DNA of 64,000 nucleotides from Candidatus Woesebacteria bacterium RIFCSPHIGHO2_02_FULL_42_20 (GCA_001792535.1 MGGS01000013.1:64692-128691); one strand, 5' to 3'. Shown: positions 4,465 through 55,199, counted from the first letter of the stretch. The notes: generated from the letters alone by a model not told the origin. Numbers and translations are program-made.

Positions 4465-4782
4465 CTCTGGAGGAAGGGCAATCGATCGCCAACAGCTACG
4501 CGGTTGTGGGCGGTAGGAAAGTCCAGGCAGCTCAAGGCAGGGTGGTCGTCGTAAGGCGGCACGCGAAAGCGCTAGAAAGTGCCACAGAGACAACGACTCA
4601 TCTTGGACCTAACCGGTCTAAGAAAGAGGGTGAAAAGAGGAAAACCTCCCCGCTGCAACCTCCGAATGGGGCGTTTGCTTGCCTACGCAAGTAGAAGGTA
4701 GCCTTGCCGAGCCCCGAAGCTTGAGGGCATAGATTGATGATTGCCATAAACAGAACCTGGCTTACTATCCTCCGGAGCCAAA
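4465..4782 (+). ncRNA. rnpB: RNase P RNA, bacterial type A
   Basis: GC-rich patch in an AT-rich genome. It contains GGAAAGTCCAGGC…AAGGCAGGGTGG, GTGCCACAGAGACAACGACTC, AGGGTGAAAAGAGG and the 3' block GGTAGCC…GCTTGAGGGCATAGATTGATGATTGCCATAAACAGAACCTGGCTTAC. These align segment by segment with the E. coli M1 RNA motifs GGAAAGUCCGGGCUCC, AGGGCAGG, ACAGAGAGCAAACC and ACAGAACCCGGCUUA. P1 can form between CTCTGGAGGA (4465-4474) and TCCTCCGGAG (4768-4777). Confidence 0.85.
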
Positions 4783-5521
4783 AAAACTCACCACATGGTG
4801 GGTTTTTTTGTGGATGAGAATCATATTTTTGCGCGACAGCCAAAAGACCCACTCCTTGAGGAAAGTTTATGTGTCTTAATACTTTGTTCTCGACTGCGAG
4901 AATATACTTGAAAATAAAATTAATAAAAGGGTTCACTTTGTTAAGTGATAAGTTTTTAAATAAGATAGCAGCTGGTAGTAAAGAAAAGTTCATGAATGAG
5001 AGCTTTGCAACTCTAAACCCTGCCCTTTCCAATTTTTCCCCGATCTCGCTTTTTGAGTATCTGTGGCGGGTGTGGACTTTTTGATCATGTTCGCTGAAAA
5101 GCCAGTTGTTGGCTGCAACTCTTAGAATCAAAAATCCCTTGGGTTGTATAACTCTGTAAAACTCCTTTATAGCTAGTTTGTCGTTGACACCTTTGTGGTA
5201 TAAAACATCAATTGAAGTGACGATGTTGAATGAGCTGGCCTTAAAAGGCAGTTTATTAATGGACGCTTTTATAGCATTTATACCTCTTTGTTGACAAAAT
5301 TTTATAGCCTCCGAACTTATATCGACACTTGTTACGCGGCCGTATTGTTTCAATTTTTTACTTAGGAGTCCAGTACCGCAACCAGCGTCTAAGATGGTGA
5401 CCGGTGTCTTGTGACCGGGGATTAGCGATTTGACTACGGAAATTACTAAGTTGTGCAAAGCAACATAATAAAAATGAGTGCTTTCGTTCTCAAATAACTT
5501 TTCGTATTCCGATACTCTCAC
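4598..5521 (-). CDS. class I SAM-dependent methyltransferase
   Basis: Motif I ILDAGCGTGLLS. Probable GTG start at 5521 overlapping the GT2 stop (GTGA). The ORF-track start at 5671 would overlap the GT2 gene by 154 nt. The last ~185 nt of the ORF run antisense through rnpB, so the true 3' end is uncertain. Confidence 0.55.
   Translation of the reverse strand: MRVSEYEKLFENESTHFYYVALHNLVISVVKSLIPGHKTPVTILDAGCGTGLLSKKLKQYGRVTSVDISSEAIKFCQQRGINAIKASINKLPFKASSFNIVTSIDVLYHKGVNDKLAIKEFYRVIQPKGFLILRVAANNWLFSEHDQKVHTRHRYSKSEIGEKLERAGFRVAKLSFMNFSLLPAAILFKNLSLNKVNPFINFIFKYILAVENKVLRHINFPQGVGLLAVAQKYDSHPQKNPPCGEFFWLRRIVSQVLFMAIINLCPQASGLGKATFYLRRQANAPFGGCSGEVFLFSPSFLDRLGPR
4783..4815. terminator. A-run / short hairpin / T-run terminator-like element after rnpB
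   Basis: CAAAAAAACTCACCACATGGTGGGTTTTTTTGTGG. A weak GC stem is flanked by A7 and T7 runs, so it is potentially bidirectional. Confidence 0.45.
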
Positions 5522-6219
5522 TTTTTCAATAGAAACAATTTTACCCACAGCATGATAAGTTCTTTGAAAGTTGAAACAATTCGATTGAATCTGAAAAATT
5601 GTGATTTCCCGTAACGCCTTTGATAGTGGTGGATTGAAACTTGGCGGAATTTGGCTCCTGCAAGCTGACACTTTTTGACCAATTCTACACAGACTGCCCC
5701 CGAATTTGAAGTCAATGTTATTTTGTCGATTATTTTTTTTCTAATGAGTCTGAAATCACAGTCAACGTCGTAGGTGGGAAGCCAAAAAAGCCAACGGGCG
5801 ACAAAGCTGTAAAGATTGCCTACGAATATGCGGTATGTGGGATCTCTCCTAGTCATTTTTATTCCGTTTACAAAGTCGGTATCAGAAGTCATTAGATTTG
5901 CAAGGATGGGTAGTTCGTGTACATCGTATTGACCGTCACCGTCGGTATAGAAAATGAGGTCCTTTGTGGAATTTGTAAACCCACTTTTTAAAGTACCCCC
6001 ATATCCCCGGTTAGTCTCGTGAAAAACGAGTTTTAGCTTTGGATAACTTTTCTTAAGTTTTTTTAGCACCTCTCTACTTTTGTCTTTGGAATCGTCATCG
6101 ACAACAATTACTTCGAAGTTACGTGTGATCTTGGGGAGGACAAGAAAAGCGTCTCTGACCAAGGTACCAATATTTGTTTCGTCGTTGAAGCAGGGGAAAA
6201 AGACCGAAATGCTGACCAT
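5518..6219 (-). CDS. family 2 glycosyltransferase, polyprenyl-phosphate sugar synthase type (DPM1/GtrB/ArnC-like)
   Basis: MVSISVFFPCFNDETNIGTLV…VIVVDDDSKDKS…NRGYGG… is a GT2 DxD/N-terminal signature. The protein is 233 aa. Confidence 0.8.
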   Translation of the reverse strand: MVSISVFFPCFNDETNIGTLVRDAFLVLPKITRNFEVIVVDDDSKDKSREVLKKLKKSYPKLKLVFHETNRGYGGTLKSGFTNSTKDLIFYTDGDGQYDVHELPILANLMTSDTDFVNGIKMTRRDPTYRIFVGNLYSFVARWLFWLPTYDVDCDFRLIRKKIIDKITLTSNSGAVCVELVKKCQLAGAKFRQVSIHHYQRRYGKSQFFRFNRIVSTFKELIMLWVKLFLLKK

Positions 6220-17304: not shown

Positions 17305-17498
17305 TTTTCTGGGTTTAGGATTTCCTGTGTATGTCAAAAGTGTGAAATAATATCTTGTCTTTTTGTATCGAGCTATTTCTCGTGGGCCTAATCGATCTTT
17401 TCTCATGTATCGCAAAATTTTATCTTGGTATTGCTTACCTCGATAGTTTGACTGTTTTTCACTAATGCGAACTAGATTATATCAAAGATAAAGTATAG

Positions 17499-17531
17499 CC
17501 CCTATAGTATTGCGCTAGGGGATTTAGATGG
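17499..17531. repeat. left copy (R1) of a 33-bp imperfect direct repeat flanking the six-gene island
   Basis: CCCCTATAGTATTGCGCTAGGGGATTTAGATGG is 28/33 identical to 23083..23115. It contains a CCCCTA…TAGGGG hairpin. Confidence 0.75.
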
Positions 17532-17545
17532 AAACTTTGTGCATT

Positions 17546-18601
17546 TTAAGGGGTACCTGTTCTTACCAATTGTCTTGCGAATAATTCTGTACCAAAACCA
17601 GATACGACCGTTGTTTCCTTCAGGTTAGAGGAAAGCCTTGCAACCCAATCTACTACGCCACCGTCAATAAAATCAACATCACCAACAAAGATTGTAAAAA
17701 CTTGTCCACTGTAATGTCCCCTTCCATACAATCTATCTAGTTGAAATGTATAAGTGACGTTTGGCTTGGGTGGTAAGCTTGTTAATACTCTTTCTATGGT
17801 TAAAAGTTCACCACCTATGTTTAACCCACCTGCTTGCTTTTGTGTTTCTGGCAAATTTATTATTTTCTGAGGTAATCTGCCTTGTAGGTTGTCAGCAAAT
17901 GATTCCGTCAAAAACTTGCCCTGTGTTTCCAGTTCGGCCGAACTTAAACTTGAAGAACTTTCTGGTAGTATTTTATTTGCTATTCCAACATTACCAACAC
18001 AAACCTCTAAATTTGATCCTGGTGAAATTTCACCAATAGCATTCAAGTAATAATCTATAAGATTTCTTAGAATTGAGATTTCTGGCGATCTATTATTGGT
18101 GTGTCTTAAAATCGAATCTGCTGTACCGAACATTTCAAAAGAAGTGAGATAATTTTTATCAGTATAACGTTGCAACCTCACACATTTATGAACTGCTCCA
18201 AGTTTAATTCCATTCTTGTTACCTTGTGATCTTCTTCTGTACACTTCCGTAGCTAATTGAGTGGTAGGGTCTGCAACTACATCTGCAGTTCTACCCGTAA
18301 CATGCGCCACTTTTAATGGTGATGTTCTTGCCAAAATCGAGTCCAACCCGAAAGGACTAAGAGCAGATAGATAAATCATTTCTCTGCCCCCCCGTTTCTC
18401 AAAGAGGATATTACCAATATTATGTAACACAAGTGCAGCTTCTCCGCTCAATGGTTGTCCGAAATCCCCATGGATTAGCCTTCTAATCGCCTGCAAATCA
18501 ATCTCTGCTTTACTAATTTTTCTGTGAAGTGCAGCTCTATAATCGGTATCGATTTTATCATTATTTAGATCTACACCTGCGACTCTATTTTCAATAGTCA
18601 T
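17546..18601 (-). CDS. hypothetical protein (351 aa), terminal gene of the island operon
   Basis: Long ORF packed 4 nt from the upstream methyltransferase. No motif recognised by eye (no P-loop, no radical-SAM Cys cluster). Confidence 0.4.
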   Translation of the reverse strand: MTIENRVAGVDLNNDKIDTDYRAALHRKISKAEIDLQAIRRLIHGDFGQPLSGEAALVLHNIGNILFEKRGGREMIYLSALSPFGLDSILARTSPLKVAHVTGRTADVVADPTTQLATEVYRRRSQGNKNGIKLGAVHKCVRLQRYTDKNYLTSFEMFGTADSILRHTNNRSPEISILRNLIDYYLNAIGEISPGSNLEVCVGNVGIANKILPESSSSLSSAELETQGKFLTESFADNLQGRLPQKIINLPETQKQAGGLNIGGELLTIERVLTSLPPKPNVTYTFQLDRLYGRGHYSGQVFTIFVGDVDFIDGGVVDWVARLSSNLKETTVVSGFGTELFARQLVRTGTP

Positions 18602-18604
18602 AAA

Positions 18605-19414
18605 TTAATTTAACTTCTTGGCTACTAAAATACACTGTTCTGAATCTATGTTTAAAGGTTCACCTTTGTAGCTTCCAAATGCCCTCAGAAAATGTAAACC
18701 TACACTTTCACACATCCTAATCAACTCTGAAAGTGTGTAGAATCTTATAACCATGTCAGTTCTCCGGACTTCACCATTAGGTTTTATTTTTGTGCGAGTT
18801 TCATGGTTGCGTGAAGTTAAAAAGTCGAATTTACGTTCAATTAGTACTTTTGTTCCGTCAGAATAGCTAACCCAATCTCGGGCTTGGTATATTCTCATAA
18901 TCCTTTCCCTATTAAAAAAATCCAACAAAAACCCCCCTCCATTTTTAAGTGACGTAGCTGCATTTTGAAGCACTCTTAAGTCGTCCTTCTCATCTTTAAA
19001 ATAACCAAAAGATGTAAACATGCTTATTACCACATCAAACCTGTTTTTGAAAGATACTCTACGCATATCAATTTTTATTAACTTAACCTTAAGTTTTAAC
19101 TTTATGGCATCGGATTTAGCCTTATTCAAATACCTCTTATTAATATCAATGCCTGTCAAAATATAACCTCTTTTAGCCAGCTCTAGCGTATGTCGACCAC
19201 TACCACAGGCTAAGTCAAGAATTTTATCGCCTCTTTTAAGGGTTAAGGCTTTTTCTAAAAAGTCAGCTTCTTTTTTTGTTCTATCTAAAGATATATATTC
19301 TGAAAATTCTTTAAAATAATCTTCGTTAAAGAATGGGTTAGTTTCTTCGTACCAATTATCATCATCTTTTCCCCGAAAATTATTATTACTATCTCTTCCT
19401 AATAATTTAGTCAT
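18605..19414 (-). CDS. class I SAM-dependent methyltransferase
   Basis: Motif I ILDLACGSGRHTLELAKRG, with the acidic post-I and motif II regions present. Confidence 0.7.
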   Translation of the reverse strand: MTKLLGRDSNNNFRGKDDDNWYEETNPFFNEDYFKEFSEYISLDRTKKEADFLEKALTLKRGDKILDLACGSGRHTLELAKRGYILTGIDINKRYLNKAKSDAIKLKLKVKLIKIDMRRVSFKNRFDVVISMFTSFGYFKDEKDDLRVLQNAATSLKNGGGFLLDFFNRERIMRIYQARDWVSYSDGTKVLIERKFDFLTSRNHETRTKIKPNGEVRRTDMVIRFYTLSELIRMCESVGLHFLRAFGSYKGEPLNIDSEQCILVAKKLN

Positions 19415-19417
19415 TAT

Positions 19418-20416
19418 TCAAATTACTGATCTGGAAATTTGTATTTTTCTTGTCTTAGTATCAATTAAACAGCTTGTTCCAATCGGAATAGTTGCTATCG
19501 GGTCAGTATGGCCAAAACTGACATCATATAGAACTGGTATATTTAGGCCTTTTAATATATCTTCTAAAACATCTTCTAATCTATCTGCTTTATTAAACCC
19601 AGAATTAGTTGCAAATTTGCCAAATACAATGCCCTTTATTTTACTAAATACACCTTGCTGTCTTAACCCTGTTAGATAATGATGTAACTGAGCAGTGTTT
19701 GTTTCCTCGCTTCCCTCCAAAAATAAAATGCGCCCTATAAAAGATGGACAATATGGAGTATCAATAACCGAACCTAAAGTCTCTATATTCGCCGCTACAA
19801 TTTTACCGCGTGCAGAACCCACTCTAAATACTCTTACACCATCGTTCTTTTTTATCTTTCTGTGTTCGTCGTCTTTCCTTAGATAAAAGGCATCATCCGC
19901 ATAATATTTTGGTGTTCCGATAACAGTTTTTTTCTTAGGCTTAACGCAAGTATCGGAAAAAGAACTCCATGTATATTCAAAGAAATCGGGTTTAGCAAAA
20001 GATATTACAGAAGGCCCCATAAAAGTTATCAGACCTGTTTTTTTATAAATCCCCAGTAGGAGAGAAGTTGTATCGGAAAATCCTATAAAAATTTTAGGAT
20101 TTCTTTTTATTAAATCATAATTTATATATTCCAACAATTGATTAGAGTTATATCCTCCCCAAAATGTCATTATGCAACTTATTTCTTTGTTCTCAAAAAA
20201 TTCGTGAATTGCGCGAACTCTATCTTCAATGGTTCCTGCTGAGTGCCCGTAAATTTTCCTACATTGAGGATGTTCTACAACCTTCAAGCCATGGTTTTTC
20301 AATATTCTATAACCCTTTTGTATTACCTCTTCTTTACATTCTGTTATTGGTATGGAAAGTGCAATAACACCAATCGTTTCACCATTATTTATTCGAGGAG
20401 GTTTTATTATCTTCAT
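19418..20416 (-). CDS. S66 family LD-carboxypeptidase (MccF/LdcA-like)
   Basis: …GETIGVIALSIPI…FIGFSDTTSLLLGI… The nucleophile serine sits in a GFSD context, and the protein is ~330 aa, typical of peptidase S66. Confidence 0.7.
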   Translation of the reverse strand: MKIIKPPRINNGETIGVIALSIPITECKEEVIQKGYRILKNHGLKVVEHPQCRKIYGHSAGTIEDRVRAIHEFFENKEISCIMTFWGGYNSNQLLEYINYDLIKRNPKIFIGFSDTTSLLLGIYKKTGLITFMGPSVISFAKPDFFEYTWSSFSDTCVKPKKKTVIGTPKYYADDAFYLRKDDEHRKIKKNDGVRVFRVGSARGKIVAANIETLGSVIDTPYCPSFIGRILFLEGSEETNTAQLHHYLTGLRQQGVFSKIKGIVFGKFATNSGFNKADRLEDVLEDILKGLNIPVLYDVSFGHTDPIATIPIGTSCLIDTKTRKIQISRSVI

Positions 20417-20422
20417 AAGTAA

Positions 20423-21226
20423 TTAAAATAAGATAATTTCTCGAAAATTCCTTTTTCTTAATATAAACACTCCGTATGACAAATATTTCATATTTTCACT
20501 GAATAACGTCATGATATTGAACATTCTGTTTATTGCGGCTTCTTCAATATTAGCCTGCCATCTCTTTTGACGAACAAGCTCGGTACAGTAATTCAGTATT
20601 TTCTCCTGGGTAACAGGCTCTGTCTTATTTTTATAACAATAATACATTTCAAGGTCCGCTTTGCTATAGTGATCTATCCAGTACTTTATTGGCCAGGGTA
20701 GTATTTTTGTTCCCATTAAGTGATTGATTTTATCAATCAACTTCTTGGGAGGTTTAGAATGGTAATAAAAATTGATATCGCCAACAAAACCCCAATCTTT
20801 GGTGGTTCTTCTGTATTCGCTTAATGCCCGTGGTATATCAGTGATGAAGGCTGTAGAGCCACCACTCATTACCAAATCAAATTCCCCATTTTCAAATGGT
20901 AAACTCTTTCCGTCTGCTTTAATAAAATTTACATTTCTCTTTAGATCAGAGTGATATTCATCGAGCATCCTGTTGGCTGTTTTTATCATTTTCCCGCTTA
21001 TATCTATCCCCGTTACTTTGCAATGAGTTAAGTGGGCAATCTCAAAAGAACAAAACCCAGTATTACAACCAACATCCAGAACTCTTGAGTTCCTATCTAA
21101 AAAGGTATTTTGTACGAGTTTTTTTATAGAATCTTTTCCTCCGGGGGGACGGTTGATCTCATCGAGCGTAGCTATAAGTTTAACGTAACTAAGTCTTTCT
21201 ATTAATTCTGGTGTAATCTTATCCAT
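20423..21226 (-). CDS. class I SAM-dependent methyltransferase
   Basis: Motif I VLDVGCNTGFCSFEIA. Confidence 0.7.
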   Translation of the reverse strand: MDKITPELIERLSYVKLIATLDEINRPPGGKDSIKKLVQNTFLDRNSRVLDVGCNTGFCSFEIAHLTHCKVTGIDISGKMIKTANRMLDEYHSDLKRNVNFIKADGKSLPFENGEFDLVMSGGSTAFITDIPRALSEYRRTTKDWGFVGDINFYYHSKPPKKLIDKINHLMGTKILPWPIKYWIDHYSKADLEMYYCYKNKTEPVTQEKILNYCTELVRQKRWQANIEEAAINRMFNIMTLFSENMKYLSYGVFILRKRNFREIILF

Positions 21227-21237
21227 TTACCAATTAT

Positions 21238-21618
21238 TCATTGTAGTTTTCTTGTTATTTCCTTACGTGTCACACTCGATGGACCAAATAAGGTTGAGAT
21301 TTTGTTAAATAATTCTCGTGCTTTATTACTATTGTCTTTTGAGTAGTTACATATAAACACGTTCAAGCTAACGTATCTATATTCAGGCCAAATATGGAAA
21401 GCAATATGAGACTCCGCCAAGGCAACTACTCCAGTTATTCCTCCATTTCCAAACTGATGATAGTACGAACCCAATTCTAAAAAACCTACTGACTTAATTA
21501 ACAAAGAGATTAAAGTCTGTATTTTCCTTTTAGATAAGTTGTTGATTTTTTTTTCATCGTTTCCCCACAAATCACCTACAATTTCTAGACCAACAATTTC
21601 AATTTTTTTACTCATCAT
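21238..21618 (-). CDS. pyruvoyl-dependent S-adenosylmethionine decarboxylase-like protein (SpeH/SpeD small type)
   Basis: …FGNGGITGVVALAESHIAFHIWPEYRYVSLNVFIC… aligns with the SpeH self-processing site (…[23 protein letters not shown]…). The ES|H serinolysis site is conserved. Confidence 0.75.
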   Translation of the reverse strand: MMSKKIEIVGLEIVGDLWGNDEKKINNLSKRKIQTLISLLIKSVGFLELGSYYHQFGNGGITGVVALAESHIAFHIWPEYRYVSLNVFICNYSKDNSNKARELFNKISTLFGPSSVTRKEITRKLQ

Positions 21619-21623
21619 ATCTG

Positions 21624-22670
21624 TTAAAAAGTAAATTTCTGACCATTAAATCTTGGTAAAGTTTGCATGTCTCGAATGTCGTTATGTTTTAGTAACCATA
21701 GAAAAAATCTCTCTACCCCTAGCCCGAAACCAGAAGTTTGAACAGGCACCTCATCCTTAATTGTTATATACCATTTATAAGGAGTTTCATCTATTTGATG
21801 TAAAGTAAGGGCTTCCCGCACTTCTTGTCCAGAAAGGTGGCGTTCTCCTGATCCAATAGTCTCACCAATACCCATCAGGAGGTCTGCATTAAGAGCTATC
21901 TTTTTATTTGCTCCAGGCGCAAATTTTTGATAGAAGGGAACAGCCATATGATCAAAATTGGTAAGCCAGACATATCCACCAAAATATTTCATCAATTCCG
22001 CTTCCCCTTTGCTATTAATATTTCGGTAAAGCGCATAACTCTCTACAAAATCGGGGTTGTTATCTAGAATTCTGACTGCCTCTTCAAAGGTGCATTTTGG
22101 TATGTTATATCCGTGCTGTGAGATATACTTAATATGTTCAGTAGTACCAGCAACAGATAATATCTCTTTTTCTAAAGTTTTAAGAAAGTGATTAGAAAGA
22201 TAAACGATATATTGCTCACAAAGTTTAATTACATTATCTAGTGTACCAATAATTTCTGCCTCGGAGTGGTAAAACTGGCCAAGATGACGCTCATCGGCTG
22301 ACTCGCCTCTAAATGATGGCGCGACATAATAAACGCCTTCTTTGTTTATTCGACAAGAGTATTCTAGAAAAAATTGCATGGAATCAGCCAAATAAGTATC
22401 AATTCCAGCAATTTGTACGTGCACTGGCACAGAGTCGCTACCCAAACCCATGGGACTGGAAATTGATCCAGTTGTAATTGGAAGTTGTACAGATTTAATA
22501 CCTCTCTGGCGGTAAAAGCTGACAGTTGCAAAGTTGAATTCGTCCTGTAATAAAGCCAATACTCTATACCATTCGTTTCTTAATGGAATTTTGTAATGAG
22601 TGGACAAATCTTTCCAAGATTTTGGTGGTTTTATTTTATTGTTCATATTAATAAAAATTAACTTGACCAA
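21624..22670 (-). CDS. stand-alone class II aminoacyl-tRNA-synthetase catalytic-core paralog (AsnA/AsnRS/AspRS-like; no anticodon-binding domain)
   Basis: Motif 2 PSFRGESADERHLGQFYHSEAE and motif 3 GFGLGVERFFLWLL of subclass IIb synthetases. At 348 aa it is too short to carry an OB anticodon-binding domain. Confidence 0.65.
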   Translation of the reverse strand: MVKLIFINMNNKIKPPKSWKDLSTHYKIPLRNEWYRVLALLQDEFNFATVSFYRQRGIKSVQLPITTGSISSPMGLGSDSVPVHVQIAGIDTYLADSMQFFLEYSCRINKEGVYYVAPSFRGESADERHLGQFYHSEAEIIGTLDNVIKLCEQYIVYLSNHFLKTLEKEILSVAGTTEHIKYISQHGYNIPKCTFEEAVRILDNNPDFVESYALYRNINSKGEAELMKYFGGYVWLTNFDHMAVPFYQKFAPGANKKIALNADLLMGIGETIGSGERHLSGQEVREALTLHQIDETPYKWYITIKDEVPVQTSGFGLGVERFFLWLLKHNDIRDMQTLPRFNGQKFTF

Positions 22671-23082
22671 ACAGTTATAAAGTCAATTTGTGTATTATAG
22701 ATATGAAAATTGTAATTAACAAACATTTTCTTCACCCGTTATTCATTTTGTGTTGTGCTGTCGATGAAATGTTTGATCTTTCGACTTGCCCTGTGTGAAA
22801 ACATAATTTGAAAACCCGTGTCTTTGGGTCTGTATTTGCAATGCTTTTACAAGATGCAGAGCTGTTGTTTCTTGTGGGTATAAATGATCTTTCTTCATAA
22901 CATTACATTAAAAAACCTCCTTTCAGGAGGCTTGATTCAAAGAAAGTTTATTACATCAAACCTCCGCCTTGGTCCGATTGACAAGGCGAGAGAGATGAAT
23001 GTAAAAGACAAGATATTTACGCATACGAGGGTATTATAATCTCTCCCCATAATTTTGTAAAGAAATTTTGTAAAGTGGGAAG

Positions 23083-23115
23083 CTCCTATAGTATTGCACT
23101 AGAGGATTTGGGTGG
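23083..23115. repeat. right copy (R2) of the 33-bp direct repeat
   Basis: CTCCTATAGTATTGCACTAGAGGATTTGGGTGG abuts the TATAAT of the rel/spoT gene. Confidence 0.75.
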
Positions 23116-23121
23116 TATAAT
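23116..23121 (+). promoter_or_regulatory. -10 box (TATAAT) 6 nt upstream of the rel/spoT ATG; probable leaderless transcript
   Basis: GGTGGTATAATTTGCCAATG: the ATG at 23128 falls where transcription initiation is expected. There is no SD. Confidence 0.4.
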
Positions 23122-23127
23122 TTGCCA

Positions 23128-24946
23128 ATGTCGATAGCTGAGAATAGAAGCTTTTTTGCCTCTCCTGAGATTGATCCCCAATCCAGACTGGGGATTCTTA
23201 ATATGAATGATGACGACTTAACTGGTCAAGTTCTTCAGGCGTATAAGGTAGCTGAATCGGCTCATAGAGGGCAGAGGAGGTTCTCGGATGAGCCTTATAT
23301 AAATCACTGTTTGGCGACTTTGAGAATTTTGGAAGCTATGGGCATTGAGGATTCAGAGATGCTTATGGCAGCCTTGTTGCATGATGTGGTTGAAGATGAT
23401 ACCGGAATCAATTTGGCAGCGCTAGAGCAGGAATTCGGCAATAGCGTTGCCCAACTGGTTGACGGGGTAACTAAACTACACACCGGAGATCAAGAAACAG
23501 CAGAAGCTTTAAGAGTTGTATCTTTATCTTACCTTGAGCCCAAGGTTGCAATTCTGAAGCTTGCTGATCGATTGCATAACATGATGACTTTGGGGAGCGT
23601 ACCGGACAATGAAAAGAGGATTTAGAAAGGCTAGGGAAACTTTGGAAGTCTACGCCCCTCTGGCCGAGTCACTGGGGATGTATGAAGTAAAAACTTTACT
23701 TGAAGATCTTGCTTTTGCACATATTGCCCCAGATCAGTTCGTACCGGTAAAAAGAAAGGTGGATCAGGATCCCAGATTAGATGATAAGTTTTTAGCATAT
23801 TGGATATCTAGGATTCAGGCGATACTTGACGAGAAGGGAATTAAAGGCTAGATTGAAGTCGCTCGGAATGGCTATTTTACTATAGAGACTAAGCGAAAAA
23901 ACTTGGGCAGTGCTGATACAAGGGGAATTGACGATCTAGTAAGTATAAGGGTGATCCTTCCAACACTCGATGATTGTTACCTGGCGAATGGTTTGTTGCA
24001 TATAAATCTTGGCGAAATTGTGGATTATAGTAGATTTGATGAATTCGTGGGAGCCAATGCCAGAGTCAATGGCTACTCTGCACTCCAGACAACCCTTGAG
24101 ACAAATCAGGGATCTTTAGAGGTTGCCTTGGTGACGCCGCAAATGGAAGAATTTAACCGCTGGGGAGTTGTCAGTTTACTCAGGCGTGGAGAGAGAGATC
24201 TTGAACATTTTACGCTGAAATCGGCTTTCGGGTCGGATGGAAAGGTTTTGTTTTTACCTAAACTGGCGACTGGAGTTGACTTGGTTTGTGCCATGGGGTC
24301 TAGGCTTTTGGCTAATGCCAATGCGATAAAAATAGACAATAGAGAGTTTCCGTTGACGGTAGTTGTTCCCAATGCGGCCAGATTTGAGGTAATTCTTGGT
24401 AATGAAGCAAGAATTGCCCCACTCCCGGAGCTTCTGGATTATTGTCTCCCCGCGACAAAGAGAATAATACTGGGACAGCTGGAAGTTGCGGAAAGATACG
24501 AACTGGCTAGTAAAGGCAAAAAAATATTGGAAGGAGTTCTTTCTCCTCGGGGAATTTTGGATCTCGGGGATGTCGAAGGAGTGGTCAGGGATTTGATCTA
24601 TTCACACGGTAGCCTGGAAGGCTTATATCTCAAAGTCGGATCTGGAGTAGTAAGCAGAGAAGAGGTTGCTCACTGGCTGGATGCTCACGGAATAACTAAA
24701 GATCGGTTGAAGTTAACAACAGTTCGTGTTGCAGGACTTGATCAGCCGGGTATCTTAGATGACCTGATACATCTGATTCGCAGGCAAGGCGATGGTGTTA
24801 ATATTAAAGGAATAGACCTACAAGGGGGAGACGATAACAGGTTTACATTGCGCTTAGTTGTTGAGCAGCTGGAATCTTCGTCGGAAGAAGCTATTCGGGT
24901 GGAAATAGGAAAAGATAGCCGTTTTGATGAATGGGTTGTGGTTTGA
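23128..24946 (+). pseudogene. RelA/SpoT-family (p)ppGpp synthetase/hydrolase homolog disrupted by a +1 frameshift (~23611-23625) and an in-frame TAG (23849-23851)
   Basis: Three consecutive ORFs (23122-23625, 23609-23851, 23903-24946) together cover the HD hydrolase domain (HRGQRRFSDEPYINHCL…LLHDVVEDD), a degenerate synthetase region (…DLVSIRVI…NGYSALQT), TGS and a C-terminal ACT domain (VRVAGLDQPGILDDL). The frame changes at an A-run. Confidence 0.65.
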
Positions 24947-24970: not shown

Positions 24971-25225
24971 TTGCGTTTTGGGGTGTGGCGTAGTATCATG
25001 GCGGTCATGAAAGAGAATTTTTTGGGTCGACTATTTGGCCATCCTAGAGCTGGAAGTACACCGGCGAAGATTGCTGAAGAGGTTGCGGTTCCTGAAAGTG
25101 CGCTCCCCTATGGTTTATGGGATGGAAAACCAAGTCTTACGGAACATGGCCGCTTGGTGGATGTAACGCTTTTTTCAGCAGCGCCTTCTCTGAATGCTAA
25201 CTCCGGAGGTTCAGGAGGTGATTGA
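24971..25225 (+). CDS. hypothetical small protein
   Basis: 84-aa ORF with a Gly-rich C-terminus and no recognisable motif. It is more GC-rich than its neighbours. Confidence 0.25.
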   Translation: MRFGVWRSIMAVMKENFLGRLFGHPRAGSTPAKIAEEVAVPESALPYGLWDGKPSLTEHGRLVDVTLFSAAPSLNANSGGSGGD

Positions 25226-25244: not shown

Positions 25245-25440
25245 TATCATATTTCCAAACCATTTGAGCTTGACTAACATCGAGCAAGGTGAAGGAAGAA
25301 AGCCTTTTGGCAAATAGACCCTTCCGGAGGCGCCCGTAAAAGCGCATAAATGAAGTAAAATTAAGGGTGGCACCGTCCTGAGCGGAATCGAAGGACCCCT
25401 GAAGATTTCTAATATTTAGAAGTTTTCAGGGGTTTTTCTG
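25245..25440 (+). promoter_or_regulatory. T-box riboswitch leader of aspS
   Basis: Conserved T-box sequence AATTAAGGGTGGCACCG (25359-25375). It is followed by an intrinsic terminator CCCCTGAA…TTCAGGGG-TTTTT (25396-25437). A GGTGA K-turn-like element and an AGAGG box lie upstream. The specifier codon was not confidently assigned. Confidence 0.6.
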
Positions 25441-25453
25441 TTAAAATGAAATT

Positions 25454-27256
25454 ATGGAAAGAACATTAGCCAAAGAAACAATTAGTAAAGTCGGTCAAAA
25501 GATCTTGCTCAAAGGCTGGGTAGCGACTATCCGCGATCACGGGAAGATTACTTTTTTGGATTTGAGGGATAGAAGCGGTAAAGTCCAATGTGTAGGTCAG
25601 GGTTTGTCAAAAATAACTACCGAAAGCGTGGTTGAAATTGAAGGCATAGTCGCAAAGCGTCCCGAAAAATTGGTTAACAAAAACTTGGAAACCGGAACAG
25701 TTGAAGTCCAGATCGAAAAGCTTGACGTCTTATCGGTAGCGCAAGATTTGCCAATAGACATGGGTAAAGAAGATTTGGATGTTTCTTTGCCGACTCTGCT
25801 TGACTTCCGCCCTTTGACTCTGCGAAATAAAAAAGTTAACTCCATCTTTAAAGTTCAGGAGGTTGTTATTGATTCTTTCAGAGAAGCCTTAAAGAAAAAA
25901 GATTTTTTTGAATTCCAGGCTCCAGTTTTTATTCCTGAGATTGCAGAGGGAGGAGCAGAAGTATTCAAAGTTCCTTATTTTAGCCACGAAGTCTACTTGT
26001 CTCAAAGCCCCCAGCTTTATAAGCAAATTTTAGTAGGCGCATATGAAAGAGTTTTTTCGGTGAATAAGACTTTGCGGGCAGAGCCGTCGGTGACTACCCG
26101 TCATTTAACGGAGGTTACTACACTTGATGCAGAGTTTGGCTTCATAGATAACTGGACCCAAGTGAAAGATATGGCCGAATACACAATAAAATATATGTTG
26201 AAAGCAGTTGAGGACAAATGCGGTGATATATTGGAAAGTTTTGGGGTTACTATACCAAAGTTTACGGACAGTATTCCGACAATAAAACTTCGTGAAGCAC
26301 AGGAAATTATTTATAGACGAACCAAAAGGGATAATAGAAATGAACCGGATTTGCAACCAGAAGATGAGAGAGAGATCTGTAAGTGGTCACTAGAGGAAAA
26401 GGGGAGCGACTTAGTCTTTGTTTCGCATTATCCAACCAAAAAAAGGCCGTTTTATACATATCAAGAGCCAGAAGACCCTGAATTTACCCAAAGTATGGAT
26501 TTGCTTGGCAGGGGTACGGAATGGATGACCGGTGGAAGAAGAATTAATGATTATGAGTTTTTGATTAAGATGGCAAAGGAGAGAAAAGTTGACCCTGAAA
26601 AACTTGATCTTTATTTGCAGGCCTTTAAGTTCGGAATGCCGCCAGAGGGCGGGTTTTCATTCGGATCAGAAAGGGTGACGATGCACATTCTTGGACTTGC
26701 TAACATCCGAGAAGCCTCACTTTTCCCGAGAGATATGGAAAGAGTAGATATTAGGCTATCAACGATACGAAAAGAAAGCCGAGTTTTGAAGGACGAAAGA
26801 AAAGATATATTTGAGATAATTGTCGATTCATTGGACTCGAAGGACATCCCCTTTGAAAAATATGAACACGAGCCGGTTTATACAAGTGAACAGGCTGCTA
26901 AAATTCGGGGAACTGATATTCATCAGGGAGCAAAAGCGCTGGTCTTACAGGCGGACAAAGATTTTATTTTATATGTTTTACCCGCTGACTTGCAGGCCAA
27001 TTTGGAAGGACTCCAAAATAAACTAAAGGTGAAAAAGTTAAGAATGGCATCCAAAGATTCTGTTAAAGCAAAAACAGGCCTTGAGGTTGGAGCAGTTCCG
27101 CCATTAGGATCATTCGTTGGACTTAAAACCTATGTCGACCCAAGGCTTTCTGAAAATAAAGAGATTGTTTTCAATGCTGGTCGTCACGACCGATCTATAA
27201 AAATGAGATATTCTGACTTCGTTAGACTCGAAAAACCTAAAATTATTCAGTTGTAA
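25454..27256 (+). CDS. aspS: aspartyl-tRNA synthetase (archaeal/eukaryal-type core) fused to a C-terminal YbaK/ProX-like aminoacyl-tRNA deacylase domain
   Basis: N-terminal OB fold, motif 2 LRAEPSVTTRHLTEVTTLDAEFGF and motif 3 GGFSFGSERVTMHILGLANIREASLFPRD end the core near residue 433. Residues ~440-600 align with YbaK (IPFEKYEHEP…KALVLQADKDFILYVLPADLQANLEGLQNKL…KAKTGLEVGAVPPLG…EIVFNAGRHDRSIKMRYSDFVRL). Confidence 0.85.
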   Translation: MERTLAKETISKVGQKILLKGWVATIRDHGKITFLDLRDRSGKVQCVGQGLSKITTESVVEIEGIVAKRPEKLVNKNLETGTVEVQIEKLDVLSVAQDLPIDMGKEDLDVSLPTLLDFRPLTLRNKKVNSIFKVQEVVIDSFREALKKKDFFEFQAPVFIPEIAEGGAEVFKVPYFSHEVYLSQSPQLYKQILVGAYERVFSVNKTLRAEPSVTTRHLTEVTTLDAEFGFIDNWTQVKDMAEYTIKYMLKAVEDKCGDILESFGVTIPKFTDSIPTIKLREAQEIIYRRTKRDNRNEPDLQPEDEREICKWSLEEKGSDLVFVSHYPTKKRPFYTYQEPEDPEFTQSMDLLGRGTEWMTGGRRINDYEFLIKMAKERKVDPEKLDLYLQAFKFGMPPEGGFSFGSERVTMHILGLANIREASLFPRDMERVDIRLSTIRKESRVLKDERKDIFEIIVDSLDSKDIPFEKYEHEPVYTSEQAAKIRGTDIHQGAKALVLQADKDFILYVLPADLQANLEGLQNKLKVKKLRMASKDSVKAKTGLEVGAVPPLGSFVGLKTYVDPRLSENKEIVFNAGRHDRSIKMRYSDFVRLEKPKIIQL

Positions 27257-34327: not shown

Positions 34328-35158
34328 TCATAGTGGGCTTTTGATGTTTTTAAGTTTTGGATTGGTTACTTTAGTATAGATTTGGGTTGTTCGGATATTT
34401 GCATGCCCCAGAAGTTCTTGGACATATCGAACATCAGTCCCATTTTCCAGTAGGTGTGTGGCAAAACTATGTCTTAATGAGTGGAATGTGGCAGGTTTTT
34501 TAATATATGCTTTTTTAAGCGCATATGAAAAAACTTTTTGTGCGGTTCTGGTTGTAAGTTTGCCTCCCTGCTCACTTTCAAATACTATATTGTCCGCTTT
34601 TTTTCCTGTGATAAGGTTTTGGATATCAGTTTTTATTTTTGCGGGCACAATGGTTATTCTGTCTTTTGCTCCCTTGGCGTTTTTAATGTGAATTGTCAAC
34701 TCGTCCAAATCTATATCTTTCACTTTTAGATTTATGACCTCACTTACTCTTAACCCTGCTCCGTATGATAAAGAAATAAGAATCTTGTGTTTTGAATTGC
34801 TGATAGATTCTATTATTTTTCTTATATCCCGACGTGACAAAATGACAGGGAGTTTTATTGCATGCTTAGTGCGGGGAATGTTAATAAAGAACCTTCTGTG
34901 CATAATCTTTTCGAAGTAGAACAAAAGCGCACTGTATGCAGTATTTATTGTGGAGTTTGATTTTTTCTGACTCGCAAGTCTTTCTAAGTAATTTCTGATA
35001 TCAACAGAATTTATGGTTTTGGGGCTTTTGTTAGTATATTTTAAAACCTTGGTAATGTATCCTAAATATGCTTTTCTTGTTCTTAGACTGAAACCGCGAA
35101 GTTTCATTTCTTGCTCAAGTTTTCTGATTGGATCTTGACTGGGATATTTGTATTTCAT
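34328..35158 (-). CDS. tyrosine-type site-specific recombinase (XerC/XerD family)
   Basis: C-terminal catalytic block …HSLRHSFATHLLENGTDVRYVQELLGHANIRTTQIYTKV (R…HxxR…Y). N-terminal SAM-like core-binding domain. Confidence 0.75.
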   Translation of the reverse strand: MKYKYPSQDPIRKLEQEMKLRGFSLRTRKAYLGYITKVLKYTNKSPKTINSVDIRNYLERLASQKKSNSTINTAYSALLFYFEKIMHRRFFINIPRTKHAIKLPVILSRRDIRKIIESISNSKHKILISLSYGAGLRVSEVINLKVKDIDLDELTIHIKNAKGAKDRITIVPAKIKTDIQNLITGKKADNIVFESEQGGKLTTRTAQKVFSYALKKAYIKKPATFHSLRHSFATHLLENGTDVRYVQELLGHANIRTTQIYTKVTNPKLKNIKSPL

Positions 35159-36667: not shown

Positions 36668-37243
36668 ATGGCAAATCAAGATATCGAAATTGAAATAAAA
36701 ACTACCTTGGATAATCCAGATGATGTAAAGGAATTTCTTAATGAGAATGGAAAATTAGTATCAAAAGATGTTTTTCAGAAAGATACATATTTTATTCCAA
36801 CCCACAGGGATTTTCTAAACGTAAAATATCCTTTCGAATGGTTGAGATTAAGGGAATCACAAAAAGGATTTTCAATAAACTATAAGCATTTTCATCCTGA
36901 AAATGTCAAAAAGACGGACTATTGCGATGAATTTGAAACAAAAATTGAAAATGTTGAAGCAATAAAAAAGATTTTTCAAAACTTGAATATAAAAGAAACT
37001 GTTGTTGTAGAAAAGGTTAGAACTACTTGGATGTTTGAAGAAGTTGAAATTGTAATTGATGAAGTAAAAGATTTGGGTTCATACATTGAATTAGAAACAA
37101 CAGCACATTTTGAAAAGCCTCAAGAGGGCAAGAAATTTCTTTACAAGATACTTAAAAAATTAAATGCTAAAGTAGGAGAAGAGGATTTGAGAGGTTACCC
37201 TTTTAGAATCTTAGAAAACAAAGGATATAAATTTGGAGAATAA
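36668..37243 (+). CDS. CYTH-domain protein (class IV adenylate cyclase / triphosphate tunnel metalloenzyme family)
   Basis: N-terminal EIEIK signature (MANQDIEIEIKTTL…) and alternating acidic/basic beta-strand pattern typical of CYTH. Confidence 0.6.
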   Translation: MANQDIEIEIKTTLDNPDDVKEFLNENGKLVSKDVFQKDTYFIPTHRDFLNVKYPFEWLRLRESQKGFSINYKHFHPENVKKTDYCDEFETKIENVEAIKKIFQNLNIKETVVVEKVRTTWMFEEVEIVIDEVKDLGSYIELETTAHFEKPQEGKKFLYKILKKLNAKVGEEDLRGYPFRILENKGYKFGE

Positions 37244-37953: not shown

Positions 37954-39774
37954 TCATTGCTTTTCTTTTCTCGAAAACCTTTTTCTTTCTATCTCATTCA
38001 GTAACTTTTTCCGAATCCTAAGTGACGAAGGGGTGATTTCGAGTAACTCGTCTTTTTCCAAGAAATCCAGAGATTGCTCGAGCGAATATTTTGTTGCAGG
38101 CGTAAGCTGGATAACCCCGTCGGATATTTTAGACCTCATATTTGTCAGTTTTTTACCTTTACAGACATTAATGGCTATGTCCTCGTCTTTTGCGTTCATC
38201 CCAACTATCATTCCCTCATAAACCTTTTCTCCGGGGTCTATAAAGGTAATTCCCCTGCCTTGAGCATTTTCAAGTCCGTAGGTAAGGGCAACTCCTGACT
38301 CGTTTGCAATTAGTGCCCCCCTTCTCATTTTGGGAATGGTTCTGCCCATTTTTTCGTAGCCTGTGATTTGTGAGCTATAGACGACCGTTCCTTTGGTTGC
38401 CGTAAGCAGAAGGCTTCGAAGTCCGATGAGCGCGCGGGTAGGCATTTTGTAGACAAACTCGACTTCTTCGGCATTGATTGGGCCCATTTTAATTATATTA
38501 GCGTAACGCCTTCCGAACTCTTCTGTAATGACTCCTATGAATTCGTTTGGGATGACAATAGAGACTTCCTCGACGGGTTCGATAGTTTTACCGTCGACCA
38601 CTTTTGTAATTACCTCAGGTTTTCCGGCTTCCATTTCGTAATCCTCTCGTCTCATGGTTTCCAGTAGAACCGAAAGATGGAGTTCTCCCCGCCCTGACAA
38701 TTTAAATTTTCCGGAGGAGATTTTTTCAACATGCAGACTCAGATTGCTTTCAAGTTCGGCCAGCAGTCTTTCTTCGATTTGCCGGCTTGTGACAAATTTA
38801 CCAACACGGCCTGCAAAAGGTGAAGTATTAGGGCCGATTGTGATGTGGATAGTTGGTTCGCCTACGGATATGGAAGGGAGGGGTGTTGTGTCAGCCGGGT
38901 CACAAACAGTTTCGCCGATTTTGACATTTCCGAGTCCAGAAAAGGAAACAATTTCTCCGCCATCAGCCGAGTCAACCTCTTTCTTTTTGAGGCCCTGATA
39001 CACGAAAAGTTTCTCTATGGAGAAAAGTTTTTTTAAGTTTCCAGATATCACCACTTTCATGCTCTTTTGGATAACTCCGCTATGAATTTTCCCGACGGCA
39101 ATTCTTCCTAGGTGATTGTCGTATTCAAGGGAAGTTACGACCATTTTAAACGGCCCGGAGTTTCTTGTGGCGGCTGGGACGGTAGAAACGATAGTGTCTA
39201 AAAGCGGAAAAATATCAGCCGACCCTCCGAGTATTTCTGGCAAAGTAGTATAAACTGCGCCGAGTTTTCCGACTGAGTATAAAACAGGAAATTCCAATTG
39301 GGAGTCTTTGTTGGCCAGTTCCAAAAACAGGGAATCTACTCTCGAAAGAGTTTCTTCAGGGCGGGCAAATTTCTTGTCGATTTTGTTTATGACAACAATG
39401 ATTTTGAGCCCAAGGGCAAGCGCTTTTTTGAGAACAAACCGGGTTTGCGGCATTGGGCCTTCTTGGGCGTCGACGATCAGAAGTGCTCCGTCAGCCATTC
39501 CTAAAGTACGCTCAACCTCACCCGAAAAATCAGCGTGGCCGGGTGTATCTATGATATTTATCTTTGTGTTTTTGTAGCGGATTGAACAGACCTTAGCCAG
39601 AATTGTAATTCCCCGCTCGCGTTCCAAAGTGTTACTGTCCATAATTTGTGTTTGGTTCATCTCCTCTTCGTTGTCACGAAAGACGTGAGTTTGCTTTAAA
39701 AGAGCATCCACCAAGGTAGTTTTACCATGGTCAACATGGGCAATAACGGCAACATTTATAATTTTTTCGTTCAT
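37954..39774 (-). CDS. typA: translational GTPase TypA/BipA
   Basis: AHVDHGKTTLVD, DTPGHADF, NKID G-motifs, 606 aa and a C-terminal BipA-specific domain. Confidence 0.9.
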   Translation of the reverse strand: MNEKIINVAVIAHVDHGKTTLVDALLKQTHVFRDNEEEMNQTQIMDSNTLERERGITILAKVCSIRYKNTKINIIDTPGHADFSGEVERTLGMADGALLIVDAQEGPMPQTRFVLKKALALGLKIIVVINKIDKKFARPEETLSRVDSLFLELANKDSQLEFPVLYSVGKLGAVYTTLPEILGGSADIFPLLDTIVSTVPAATRNSGPFKMVVTSLEYDNHLGRIAVGKIHSGVIQKSMKVVISGNLKKLFSIEKLFVYQGLKKKEVDSADGGEIVSFSGLGNVKIGETVCDPADTTPLPSISVGEPTIHITIGPNTSPFAGRVGKFVTSRQIEERLLAELESNLSLHVEKISSGKFKLSGRGELHLSVLLETMRREDYEMEAGKPEVITKVVDGKTIEPVEEVSIVIPNEFIGVITEEFGRRYANIIKMGPINAEEVEFVYKMPTRALIGLRSLLLTATKGTVVYSSQITGYEKMGRTIPKMRRGALIANESGVALTYGLENAQGRGITFIDPGEKVYEGMIVGMNAKDEDIAINVCKGKKLTNMRSKISDGVIQLTPATKYSLEQSLDFLEKDELLEITPSSLRIRKKLLNEIERKRFSRKEKQ

Positions 39775-42149: not shown

Positions 42150-42761
42150 TTATTTATTGTTTAAGGCCAGATAATTATTAACTTTCAGAATAAGAGCTGC
42201 TGTTGCACCATGGGTTATTTTGCTGTCCATTACCCACAGGACTGCTTTTTTAAAAGGAACTTTTATGACTTTAATATTCTCAGTTCCTTCAGGATTTGCT
42301 TGTGAAAAGGATAAATCTCTAGCAAAAAACATATGATTTGGTGAGTAAATAGCTGTGGTAAAGGGGTCAATATATCCCAGGTCTATCCATTCCTTTGCAG
42401 AAATACCTGTCTCCTCTTTAAGTTCTCGTCTCGCAGCCGCGAGTTTATTTTCTCGCTTATTTATTCCTCCACTGATTGCCTCAATAGTTATTCTTTCCAC
42501 TGCATAGTGGTACTCTTTAGTTAAGTAAACATTTCCATTATTGTCTATCGGAAGGACGGATACGCCGGGTTTCATTTCCACAACTCCGAAGATACCTTTC
42601 TTTTTGTCCGGGCGAATTACTTTATCTTCACGAACTCTTAGCCACGGATTTTGGTAGACAGTTTTGGTTCCGGTAACTTCCCAAGGCCCCTTTTTGATTC
42701 TCACAAGGCTATTATACTCTAACCTTCTCGTACTCTTCGTCGAAGATATTAGGGAGTGCAT
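42150..42761 (-). CDS. NUDIX hydrolase
   Basis: Nudix box …AARRELKEETGI…. Confidence 0.75.
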   Translation of the reverse strand: MHSLISSTKSTRRLEYNSLVRIKKGPWEVTGTKTVYQNPWLRVREDKVIRPDKKKGIFGVVEMKPGVSVLPIDNNGNVYLTKEYHYAVERITIEAISGGINKRENKLAAARRELKEETGISAKEWIDLGYIDPFTTAIYSPNHMFFARDLSFSQANPEGTENIKVIKVPFKKAVLWVMDSKITHGATAALILKVNNYLALNNK

Positions 42762-43681: not shown

Positions 43682-44362
43682 TTACTTGAAAATTTCCTTT
43701 TTCATATCTCTTGCCAGTTTCAAATAGAAGTTCTCCATTTCTTTCCATTTGAATGGAACCAGCATTTTTGGGTAGTCTTTAAATTCTACCACTCTTAAAA
43801 ATTGTCTAGCTAAGTGTATACTGTCGGTATGAATTCCAAATTTTATGGCCGAATCCTTTCTTATTTTTTCCAAATTAAACTCCTCCTTTAAAGATATAAA
43901 ATATAAGTCGATATAATCTTTGGCTCTTGGGCTTGCACTTATCGTTTCAAATTTGTTAAGTGTAATATCGTACAGACTATCGATACGTAAACCATTCCAA
44001 ACAATTCCCAATTCGGCCCTTTCTGAAGGATAATAACTAAAGTCCACCTTCAACGTATCGCCGTTTGGGTACTCAAAAGTGTAAAAATAAAACCCCAGCT
44101 GTTCTGTACGACCAACTTCGTTAAATCCGATTTTCTTTTTATTCTTCTGCAGGAACTTTTGAATATGTTGTGCGTTAACCTCAAATTTTTCACTAAAAAA
44201 GTCAAGATCATATGATTCGCGGTGATGTAAATACCAACAAGAAAGGGCTGTACCGCCAGAAAGATAAAAGTTCTTTAGGATGTATGGCTCTTGAAGTACC
44301 ACTGCCAGAAATTGCTTCTGTCGGCTAGTAAGCCCGGCTCCTTTTTCCATAACTTCCCCCAT
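43682..44362 (-). CDS. AbiEii/AbiGii-family nucleotidyltransferase (DUF1814; type IV TA toxin-like)
   Basis: …ILKNFYLSGGTALSCWYLHHRESYDLDFF… N-terminal NTase signature of the AbiEii family. Confidence 0.6.
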   Translation of the reverse strand: MGEVMEKGAGLTSRQKQFLAVVLQEPYILKNFYLSGGTALSCWYLHHRESYDLDFFSEKFEVNAQHIQKFLQKNKKKIGFNEVGRTEQLGFYFYTFEYPNGDTLKVDFSYYPSERAELGIVWNGLRIDSLYDITLNKFETISASPRAKDYIDLYFISLKEEFNLEKIRKDSAIKFGIHTDSIHLARQFLRVVEFKDYPKMLVPFKWKEMENFYLKLARDMKKEIFK

Positions 44363-46912: not shown

Positions 46913-47419
46913 TTAAATTAAATATTTTCTTGACTCCTCAAGAAAAACAGTATCTCGTGGAACAATATAAGCGCTTCCTTCAATTGAAGTGGCAACATTT
47001 TTAGAAATAGCTTGTAAGGCGTCTTCGAGACTTAACCAAACAGGTTCAAAGTTACCTTCAACTTCTTCATCTGTAAAACTAGGGTTACCTTTATTGCCTT
47101 TCAGTTTGGCCAAGTAACAGTAAGAGATTTGTTTAAGTTTGAATATTTTTCTATATTCGACGATGGAGCCTATTTCGTCAAGGATTTCAATTTCAGACCC
47201 GACTTCCTCTTGACACTCTCGTTTCAAGGCTCGCTTTTTATCCTCGCCTTTTTCAATGCCACCGCCGGGCAATTTATAATATTTGCTTTTAACTACGTGT
47301 AAGAGCGCTATTTTTCCGTCGTTGTCAAAGACTATGGCCCGCACCGCCTCACGGGTAGGATAGCTCTTGACCTCTTTCTTAGTGACTTTTTCAGGATTGA
47401 TAACCAGAAGCTGTTTCAT
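46913..47419 (-). CDS. NUDIX hydrolase
   Basis: Nudix box GGGIEKGEDKKRALKRECQEEVG. Confidence 0.75.
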   Translation of the reverse strand: MKQLLVINPEKVTKKEVKSYPTREAVRAIVFDNDGKIALLHVVKSKYYKLPGGGIEKGEDKKRALKRECQEEVGSEIEILDEIGSIVEYRKIFKLKQISYCYLAKLKGNKGNPSFTDEEVEGNFEPVWLSLEDALQAISKNVATSIEGSAYIVPRDTVFLEESRKYLI

Positions 47420-55048: not shown

Positions 55049-55090
55049 GATGTGATTATAACAAAGTTGATGTTGTCTTTGAGAAGAGAG

Positions 55091-55161
55091 CTGCCCAGCC
55101 ACGATTCGAACGTGGATTAGATGGTTCAGAGCCATCTGGCCTACCGTTAGCCGACCGGGCA
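55091..55161 (-). tRNA. tRNA-Gln (anticodon CUG)
   Basis: 71-nt cloverleaf folded by hand. The acceptor stem is TGCCCGG/CTGGGCA with a U1:A72 pair and discriminator G73, a hallmark of bacterial tRNA-Gln. D-arm GGCT/GGCC, anticodon stem GATGG/CCATC with loop CTCTGAA (U33, CUG, A37), and T-arm CCACG-TTCGAAT-CGTGG. No CCA is encoded. Confidence 0.85.
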
Positions 55162-55199
55162 ATAATGCCTTTGCAAGTATATCAAAATTATGGCCGGAA

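Follow-up and report, generated by a model that had tools for sequence, protein, structure and literature searches.

A RelA/SpoT homologue split by a frameshift and an in-frame stop in Candidatus Woesebacteria: a probable pseudogene with further damage segregating

How should a gene be read when the parts of a long RelA/SpoT homologue (RSH) follow one another without a reading frame that joins them? The question is raised by a 64,000-nucleotide stretch of the genome of Candidatus Woesebacteria bacterium RIFCSPHIGHO2_02_FULL_42_20 (GCA_001792535.1 MGGS01000013.1:64692-128691), referred to here as the window, in which such a gene occupies positions 23128-24946. No other gene of RelA/SpoT type was seen in these 64 kb. 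The original prediction described it as a rel/spoT homolog split by a +1 frameshift and an in-frame TAG. Both the list of open reading frames (ORFs) and the three-frame translations agree with that description, and the coordinates are correct save for the site of the frame change, which is refined below. The pieces are arranged as follows.

23128-24946 (+): the whole RSH gene, seen in the ORF list and three-frame translations as three ORFs of 165, 80 and 347 amino acids in two frames
23122/23128-23625 (+): RSH fragment 1 (ORF1), frame 1, 165 amino acids from the ATG, with the stop TAG at 23623-25
23609-23851 (+): RSH fragment 2 (ORF2), frame 2, 80 amino acids as called, carrying the end of the HD domain and linker helices, with the stop TAG at 23849-51
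23852-24946 (+): RSH fragment 3 (ORF3), carrying the synthetase-like domain, a TGS-like region and an ACT-like C-terminus

The joined fragments match uninterrupted RSHs, mostly of about 600 amino acids, over their whole length, so that chance does not account for the split. The protein search yielded 5,903 relatives, and 119 homologues were aligned, giving 120 sequences with the window protein. All 119 are single ORFs from Microgenomates or other Patescibacteria metagenomes, nearly all of about 570-650 amino acids. The single uninterrupted frame of these orthologues is absent here, being broken by a frame change at 23620-26 and by the TAG at 23849-51. The two lesions are real, all assemblies examined carry them, and no orthologue is interrupted. 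The most probable reading, to which we assign a probability of roughly 0.8, is a genuine pseudogene of a long RSH that is fixed in the sampled population. We infer both a loss of function and relaxed selection at the locus.

The domain order of the joined protein, HD, synthetase-like, TGS-like and ACT-like, is that of Rel/SpoT proteins (TIGR00691; mycobacterial Rel, 5XNX and 8FR8; Rel_Seq, 1VJ7), and the N-terminal half aligns with them over about 315 residues (E 1e-54). Conservation extends to the HD catalytic motifs and to the counterparts of the synthetase residues D264 and E323. Unlike Rel/SpoT genes, the gene in the window is interrupted twice, and the Microgenomates family to which it belongs has replaced the canonical synthetase motifs. 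The family members tested also score below the TIGR00691 (spoT_relA) cut-off of 499.2 bits, with 269 bits for the window protein and 312-329 bits for intact relatives.

The first lesion falls within the hydrolase domain. ORF1 matches the Pfam profile HD_4 with 86 bits over positions 1-135 of 156, ORF2 carries positions 137-155, and the joined protein covers positions 1-155 with 108.6 bits. The rise from 86 to 108.6 bits on joining the two frames indicates that the frameshift cuts the HD domain. All of its metal-binding and catalytic motifs (H..HD..ED..D..N) lie in ORF1, with H46, H60, H85-D86, E89-D90, D147 and N151 conserved in the alignment; the last 21 or so profile positions are missing from ORF1. 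Downstream of the TAG, RelA_SpoT (PF04607) is recognized at 32-33 bits (cut-off 27). The ACT_4 match of 17-18 bits stays below its cut-off of 27 and reaches up to 29 bits in intact relatives. No Pfam match to TGS was found in the window protein (cut-off 22.2), although the region aligns with that of relatives. Among the latter, two exceed the TGS cut-off (P0002, 31.7 bits; P0009, 26.5 bits) and one falls below it (P0021, 16.3 bits).

The frame change and the second stop can be placed closely.

23617-23626 (+): frameshift site AGG ATT T AGA, with one extra base that shifts frame 1 to frame 2, best placed in the T-run 23621-23623
23849-23851 (+): in-frame TAG in a variable column, immediately preceding the diverged G-loop motif of the synthetase-like domain

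The change of frame necessarily lies between 23585 and 23625. The original prediction set it at an A-run near 23611-23625; the switch itself is confirmed, whereas that placement is the less likely one. An extra A in the AAAA run at 23612-15 gives ERGFRKA, a poorer fit to the columns of the 119 homologues than an extra T in ATT-T-AGA (23620-23626), which gives EKRI|RKARETL and is preferred by column composition. The resulting junction, EKRI|RKARETLEV, matches mycobacterial Rel (EKQARKARETLEV). One additional codon at the junction (N161) has no counterpart in 118 of the 119 homologues. Translation continued past the first TAG in frame 1 runs into non-homologous sequence with further stops.

The second TAG lies 226 nucleotides downstream of the frameshift, in the frame of ORF2. 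Homologues carry mainly R (26), K (22), E (13) or T (12) in this column, and TAG is one substitution away from AAG or GAG. As had been claimed, TAG is not reassigned in this genome: it ends 10 of the 59 long ORFs in the window and is thus a normal stop. The only tRNA in the window is Gln-CUG, and no suppressor tRNA occurs there, so that reassignment or suppression of TAG was discarded. ORF2 begins with an ATG that overlaps the end of ORF1 by 17 nucleotides. ORF3 shares the frame of ORF2 and is open from 23852; it was called from TTG 23903 (347 amino acids) and ends at 24946, a start that would omit the conserved segment IEVARNGYFTIETKRKN.

Sequence signals for transcription upstream of the gene look undamaged.

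23113-23121 (+): extended -10-like box TGGTATAAT, intact, 6 nucleotides upstream of the ATG at 23128, a leaderless-type start as read from the sequence

A -35-like TTGCAC lies at 23095-23100. The spacer between the two elements is only 15 nucleotides, which explains why this promoter is missing from the plus-strand list of a consensus scan. No terminator follows the RSH stop. Further on, a very long terminator-like hairpin (20-pair stem) lies at 25393-25435 (+), between a 75-amino-acid orphan ORF (24998-25225) and the aspartyl-tRNA synthetase gene. As for the wider neighbourhood, 20 gene starts between 13400 and 32700 show no Shine-Dalgarno motifs, and many of them have a -10-like box (TATAAT, TAAAAT, TATACT or TAGAAT) 6-9 nucleotides before the start codon, a pattern that suggests widespread leaderless or near-leaderless mRNAs.

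The reality of both lesions rests on their recurrence. The frameshift and the TAG are base-for-base identical in 12 other assemblies of a near-clonal Candidatus Woesebacteria population from the Rifle aquifer, retrieved by exact look-up of the fragment proteins and by a metagenome scan, the JGI part of which yielded one contig. Six are ENA assemblies (ERZ28564339, ERZ27254846, ERZ4903125, ERZ27254763, ERZ4903137 and ERZ28563557), three are JGI assemblies or contigs (3300002105, 3300025317 and Ga0209642), and three are metagenome-assembled genomes (MAGs) at NCBI (GCA_001793255.1, GCA_001792935.1 and GCA_001792075.1). Their identity to the window over the aligning parts, up to 20 kb, is 99.55-100%, and the minimum is due to runs of N in one scaffold. 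One contig (L015) had been considered as a divergent strain for a dN/dS comparison and was dismissed, as its differences from the window are scaffold N-gaps and a few single-nucleotide polymorphisms (SNPs). Proteins identical to ORF1 and ORF2 appear in 64 and 71 indexed blocks of the collection, respectively. The fragment sequences belong to Candidatus Woesebacteria MAGs from the Rifle aquifer, such as RBG_16_41_13. NCBI records list the pieces as three separate coding sequences, with four accessions per fragment, under names such as 'HD domain-containing protein' and 'RelA/SpoT domain-containing protein' and without a pseudogene mark.

An intact allele was not found in the protein search. After a 99% copy of ORF3, the best matches are RSH proteins of 34-51% identity, the closest of them only 49-51%, and the next match after the ORF3 fragment is 49% identical. 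A search of GTDB representative genomes for a close intact orthologue returned only an unrelated Bacteroidales match.

Additional damage segregates on top of the two fixed lesions.

23721/4-23783/6 (+): 63-bp in-frame deletion in one contig (L003), between 3-bp ATA microhomologies, removing IAPDQFVPVKRKVDQDPRLDD
23459/23460 (+): junction with an IS3-family insertion sequence (IS; rve + HTH_Tnp_1) inside ORF1, a minority variant (contig L020; proteins P0122 and P0125)

Among the residues lost in the deletion are D214 and R216, which occupy two of the only 13 columns without variation in the 120 sequences. The element joined to ORF1 has recognizable terminal inverted repeats. In the contig with the junction, the full IS (rve + HTH_Tnp_1, about 1.17 kb) spans positions 433-1604, and its far side is a Nudix-like gene in place of the remainder of the RSH, a layout indicative of either rearrangement or an assembly join between IS copies. 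All five point variants found in the RSH are non-synonymous (A63V, L to F, D to Y, V to M and T to I), with no synonymous change.

The reconstructed protein also fits the family poorly. A hidden Markov model was built from the 74 more distant family members and used to score the 46 closest ones, among which the reconstructed protein is the lowest, at 656 bits versus 741 +/- 32. The deficit is located in the HD domain (z -1.9), the synthetase-like domain (z -2.7) and the TGS-like region (z -3.4), while ORF2 and the C-terminus are not reduced (z about -0.6). With Pfam RelA_SpoT, the protein reaches 32 bits versus 42-52 bits in intact relatives. General decay of the genome was discarded as an explanation. 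None of the other checked ORFs of the window shows a truncated or split domain match, which points to a specific loss instead of poor sequence or overall erosion.

Several observations weigh against the pseudogene reading. The sequence is well preserved, with changes in only 5 of 74 highly conserved columns, where intact relatives have 3.1 +/- 3.1, and with no HD catalytic motif lost. The promoter-like signals, too, look undamaged. A fast-evolving lineage, and not relaxed selection, could account for the low profile scores. At the DNA level, the ratio of non-synonymous to synonymous variants is 4:0 in the RSH versus about 7:5 in the flanks, a difference that is not significant, and these counts are both small and biased, several contigs having been retrieved through RSH protein variants. 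Given such preservation, inactivation may be recent, or ORF1 may still be partly constrained.

Under the pseudogene reading, a one-base insertion, most likely TT to TTT at 23621-23623, would have cut the HD domain and created a TAG at once. An independent single substitution, suggested by the homologue residues in that column, would have produced the TAG at 23849-51. No full-length enzyme could then be made, and the locus would now be drifting, with more damaging variants, namely the IS insertion, the 63-bp deletion and the amino acid changes, segregating in the population.

Dependence on partner cells is characteristic of the Patescibacteria lifestyle, and the organism resembles other reduced-genome bacteria that lose RSHs in having a small genome and a probable reliance on partners. 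RSH loss has been documented in host-dependent bacteria, including RSH-free endosymbionts (Atkinson et al. 2011, PMC3153485). In Leptospira biflexa Patoc 1 Paris, Rel is a pseudogene through a single stop, CAA to TAA (PMC3153485). The likeness lies in a long RSH knocked out by simple point lesions. Unlike those cases, the present one concerns a Candidatus Woesebacteria lineage, combines two lesions with a segregating IS insertion and deletion, consistent with decay in progress, and has its pieces annotated as three ordinary proteins in public records. Hence, it is a new instance of a known phenomenon, in Candidatus Woesebacteria, that adds population snapshots of continuing decay.

A degenerate synthetase domain had also been noted in the original prediction, and its motifs have indeed diverged. 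The divergence is not evidence of decay in this genome, because the same replacements are conserved across the 119 homologues and thus constitute a family trait. Throughout the family, GRxKH has become xRxxG, RFKD has become RFDE, SLHT has become ALQT, and EVQIRT has become EIAxxT, while the equivalents of D264 and E323 remain nearly invariant. With canonical GRxKH, RxKD and QIRT gone, the family conserves motifs of its own, NGYSALQTT and EIAxxTxEMEEFNNWGVVSL (residues 244-346 of the joined protein). To judge from these motifs, the synthetase-like domain could be inactive, regulatory or repurposed. A comparable arrangement is that of SpoT[Hs] of Moraxellaceae, a long RSH that acts only as a hydrolase and whose synthetase domain is degenerating (Atkinson et al. 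2011, PMC3153485); PDB 7QPR is among the structure matches of the window protein. Both pair an intact HD domain with a synthetase domain that is missing several canonical substrate-binding residues. Unlike SpoT[Hs], the Microgenomates family is a separate lineage in which the equivalents of the catalytic D and E are nearly invariant. The likeness is a property of the family and not the cause of the gene break in this genome.

Among the alternatives, surviving partial function is the one that keeps most ground, and it is nonetheless unlikely. ORF1 would act as a stand-alone small alarmone hydrolase, perhaps aided by ORF2, with ORF3 dead or regulatory. ORF1 does contain every metal and catalytic residue of the HD domain and aligns with stand-alone hydrolases such as MESH1 (E 4e-16, residues 5-136 of 178). 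Yet it is without the last 21 or so of the 156 HD_4 positions, equivalent to about 40 terminal residues of MESH1, and so does not form a complete HD fold. It also carries G54D in the near-invariant SGEPY motif and W71M in another near-invariant column, and its profile score ranks 45th of 46. The intact promoter-like box, the leaderless ATG, the overlap of ORF1 and ORF2, which could permit translational coupling, and the undiminished conservation of ORF2 and the C-terminus are all consistent with a locus that is still used. Against such use, part of the population has the IS junction in ORF1, together with the A63V and L-to-F variants, and no comparable split gene occurs among the 119 listed homologues.

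A related possibility, which we consider very unlikely, is that a trace of (p)ppGpp hydrolase arises through low-level +1 slippage at AUU-UAG-A combined with UAG read-through, or through non-covalent assembly of ORF1 and ORF2. If so, the trace level of hydrolase would depend on release factor 1 (RF1) activity or on translation status, and alarmone turnover would in effect be under an RF1-sensing switch, in a bacterium without Shine-Dalgarno-led translation.

Programmed recoding is highly improbable. It would require a prfB-like +1 frameshift at AUU UAG A, favoured by the upstream GAGG and by slow termination at UAG, followed by read-through of the second UAG, to provide a little full-length enzyme under regulation. 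The resemblance to the +1 site of prfB (release factor 2; CUU UGA C with an upstream Shine-Dalgarno sequence) is superficial and comprises several elements: a 0-frame stop occupies the A site right after the best-fitting junction, a purine-rich GAGG lies just upstream, the direction is +1, and the slip reproduces the family pattern EKRI-RKA exactly. Both interruptions are UAG, and both are invariant across all assemblies examined. However, a T inserted before AGA automatically makes TAG, so a stop at the shift site is expected from the mutation itself. In prfB, 3 nucleotides separate the Shine-Dalgarno sequence from the slip codon; here, GAGG abuts AUU with no spacing, and Shine-Dalgarno sites are absent from the 20 neighbouring genes. 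The slipped tRNA would probably pair poorly, as tRNA-Ile on UUU would mismatch at the first position. None of the 119 aligned homologues is interrupted, and the shift site is not conserved. One event would not be enough for a full product either, since read-through of the second, unrelated UAG would be required as well, with no suppressor tRNA in the window and UAG in regular use as a stop. The local RNA shows no excess of structure over shuffled sequence (z +1.0), and the region has no Rfam match. With the Shine-Dalgarno element, RNA structure, Rfam match and site conservation all checked and all negative, a programmed frameshift was discarded.

A homopolymer miscall combined with a base error in an intact gene, the artefact that had been offered beside the now well-supported pseudogene, is compatible with a metagenome-derived genome and a frame change in short homopolymers (T3 or A4), but runs of three or four bases are not typical error sites in consensus short-read assemblies, no intact protein of about 600 amino acids appears in the protein search, and the same lesions recur in the 12 other assemblies, from different samples, centres and assemblers, some with SNPs elsewhere and under several distinct BioSample and JGI project identifiers, though some may share read sets, so assembly error is effectively excluded.

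The gene lies beside a low-GC segment, to which the original prediction had tentatively tied the damage.

17497-17531 and 23081-23115: 35-nucleotide direct repeat (copies D1a and D1b, 86% identical) that brackets the low-GC segment

The right-hand copy forms the right edge of the segment and covers the -35-like TTGCAC at 23095-23100. The overlap that had been described is therefore present, and the causal link does not follow from it, being a matter of geometry only. The point lesions sit about 500 and 720 bp inside the gene, and nothing ties the insertion of the island to either of them. The segment itself (17532-23080, 5.5 kb, GC 0.34-0.35) is present in every assembly examined and holds six minus-strand genes, which encode a 351-amino-acid hypothetical protein, two methyltransferases, a peptidase S66, an AdoMet decarboxylase and a class-II aminoacyl-tRNA synthetase-core/AsnA-like protein. 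A solo IS3-family terminal inverted repeat (TGTGCATTTTAAGGGGTAC) at 17532-17560 adjoins the left repeat and overlaps the stop of the 351-amino-acid ORF. The IS found in ORF1 in contig L020 has this same terminal inverted repeat, and the two occurrences together point to IS activity around the locus.

At the right end of the segment, the minus strand of 22900-23061 carries a strong promoter-like TTTACA-17-TATAAT (11 of 12 matches), with a terminator-like hairpin at 22933-22913, about 100 nucleotides on. None of the shuffled versions of a 129-nucleotide stretch of this region folds as well as the stretch itself (z -3.7), for which Rfam gives no match. The signals would suit either a small RNA or a leader/attenuator that lies upstream of the AsnA-like gene.

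Other features of the window concern unrelated genes. The aspartyl-tRNA synthetase (25454-27256) has a C-terminal YbaK-type tRNA_edit domain (PF04073), an unusual fusion. A class A bacterial RNase P RNA at 4466-4780 (+; 109 bits) is antisense to the 3' end of a methyltransferase ORF (4598-5671, -), the true extent of which is doubtful at the overlap. The tRNA-Gln(CUG) at 55090-55161 (-) lies inside an ORF at 54647-55255, which is therefore probably spurious. Genes that look intact include a tyrosine recombinase, a CYTH-domain protein, TypA/BipA, an AbiEii toxin and two Nudix hydrolases; the coordinates listed for these six are 34328-35158, 36668-37243, 37954-39774, 43682-44362, 42150-42761 and 46913-47419.

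A hallmark of bacteria living at the expense of other cells is that RelA/SpoT signalling has been lost. If the pseudogene reading is right, this locus shows such a loss caught in progress in an uncultivated bacterium of the Candidate Phyla Radiation (CPR), with two fixed lesions and with an IS junction and a deletion segregating across aquifer samples. A literature search on ppGpp or the stringent response in Patescibacteria/CPR found nothing relevant. The fragments are stored in databases as ordinary proteins, and metabolic reconstructions of these MAGs would therefore wrongly credit the organism with alarmone metabolism. The finding supports the idea that ultra-small bacteria can dispense with the stringent response. 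The more interesting lead lies at the level of the family, in the long RSHs of Microgenomates with their conserved, non-canonical synthetase-like domain.

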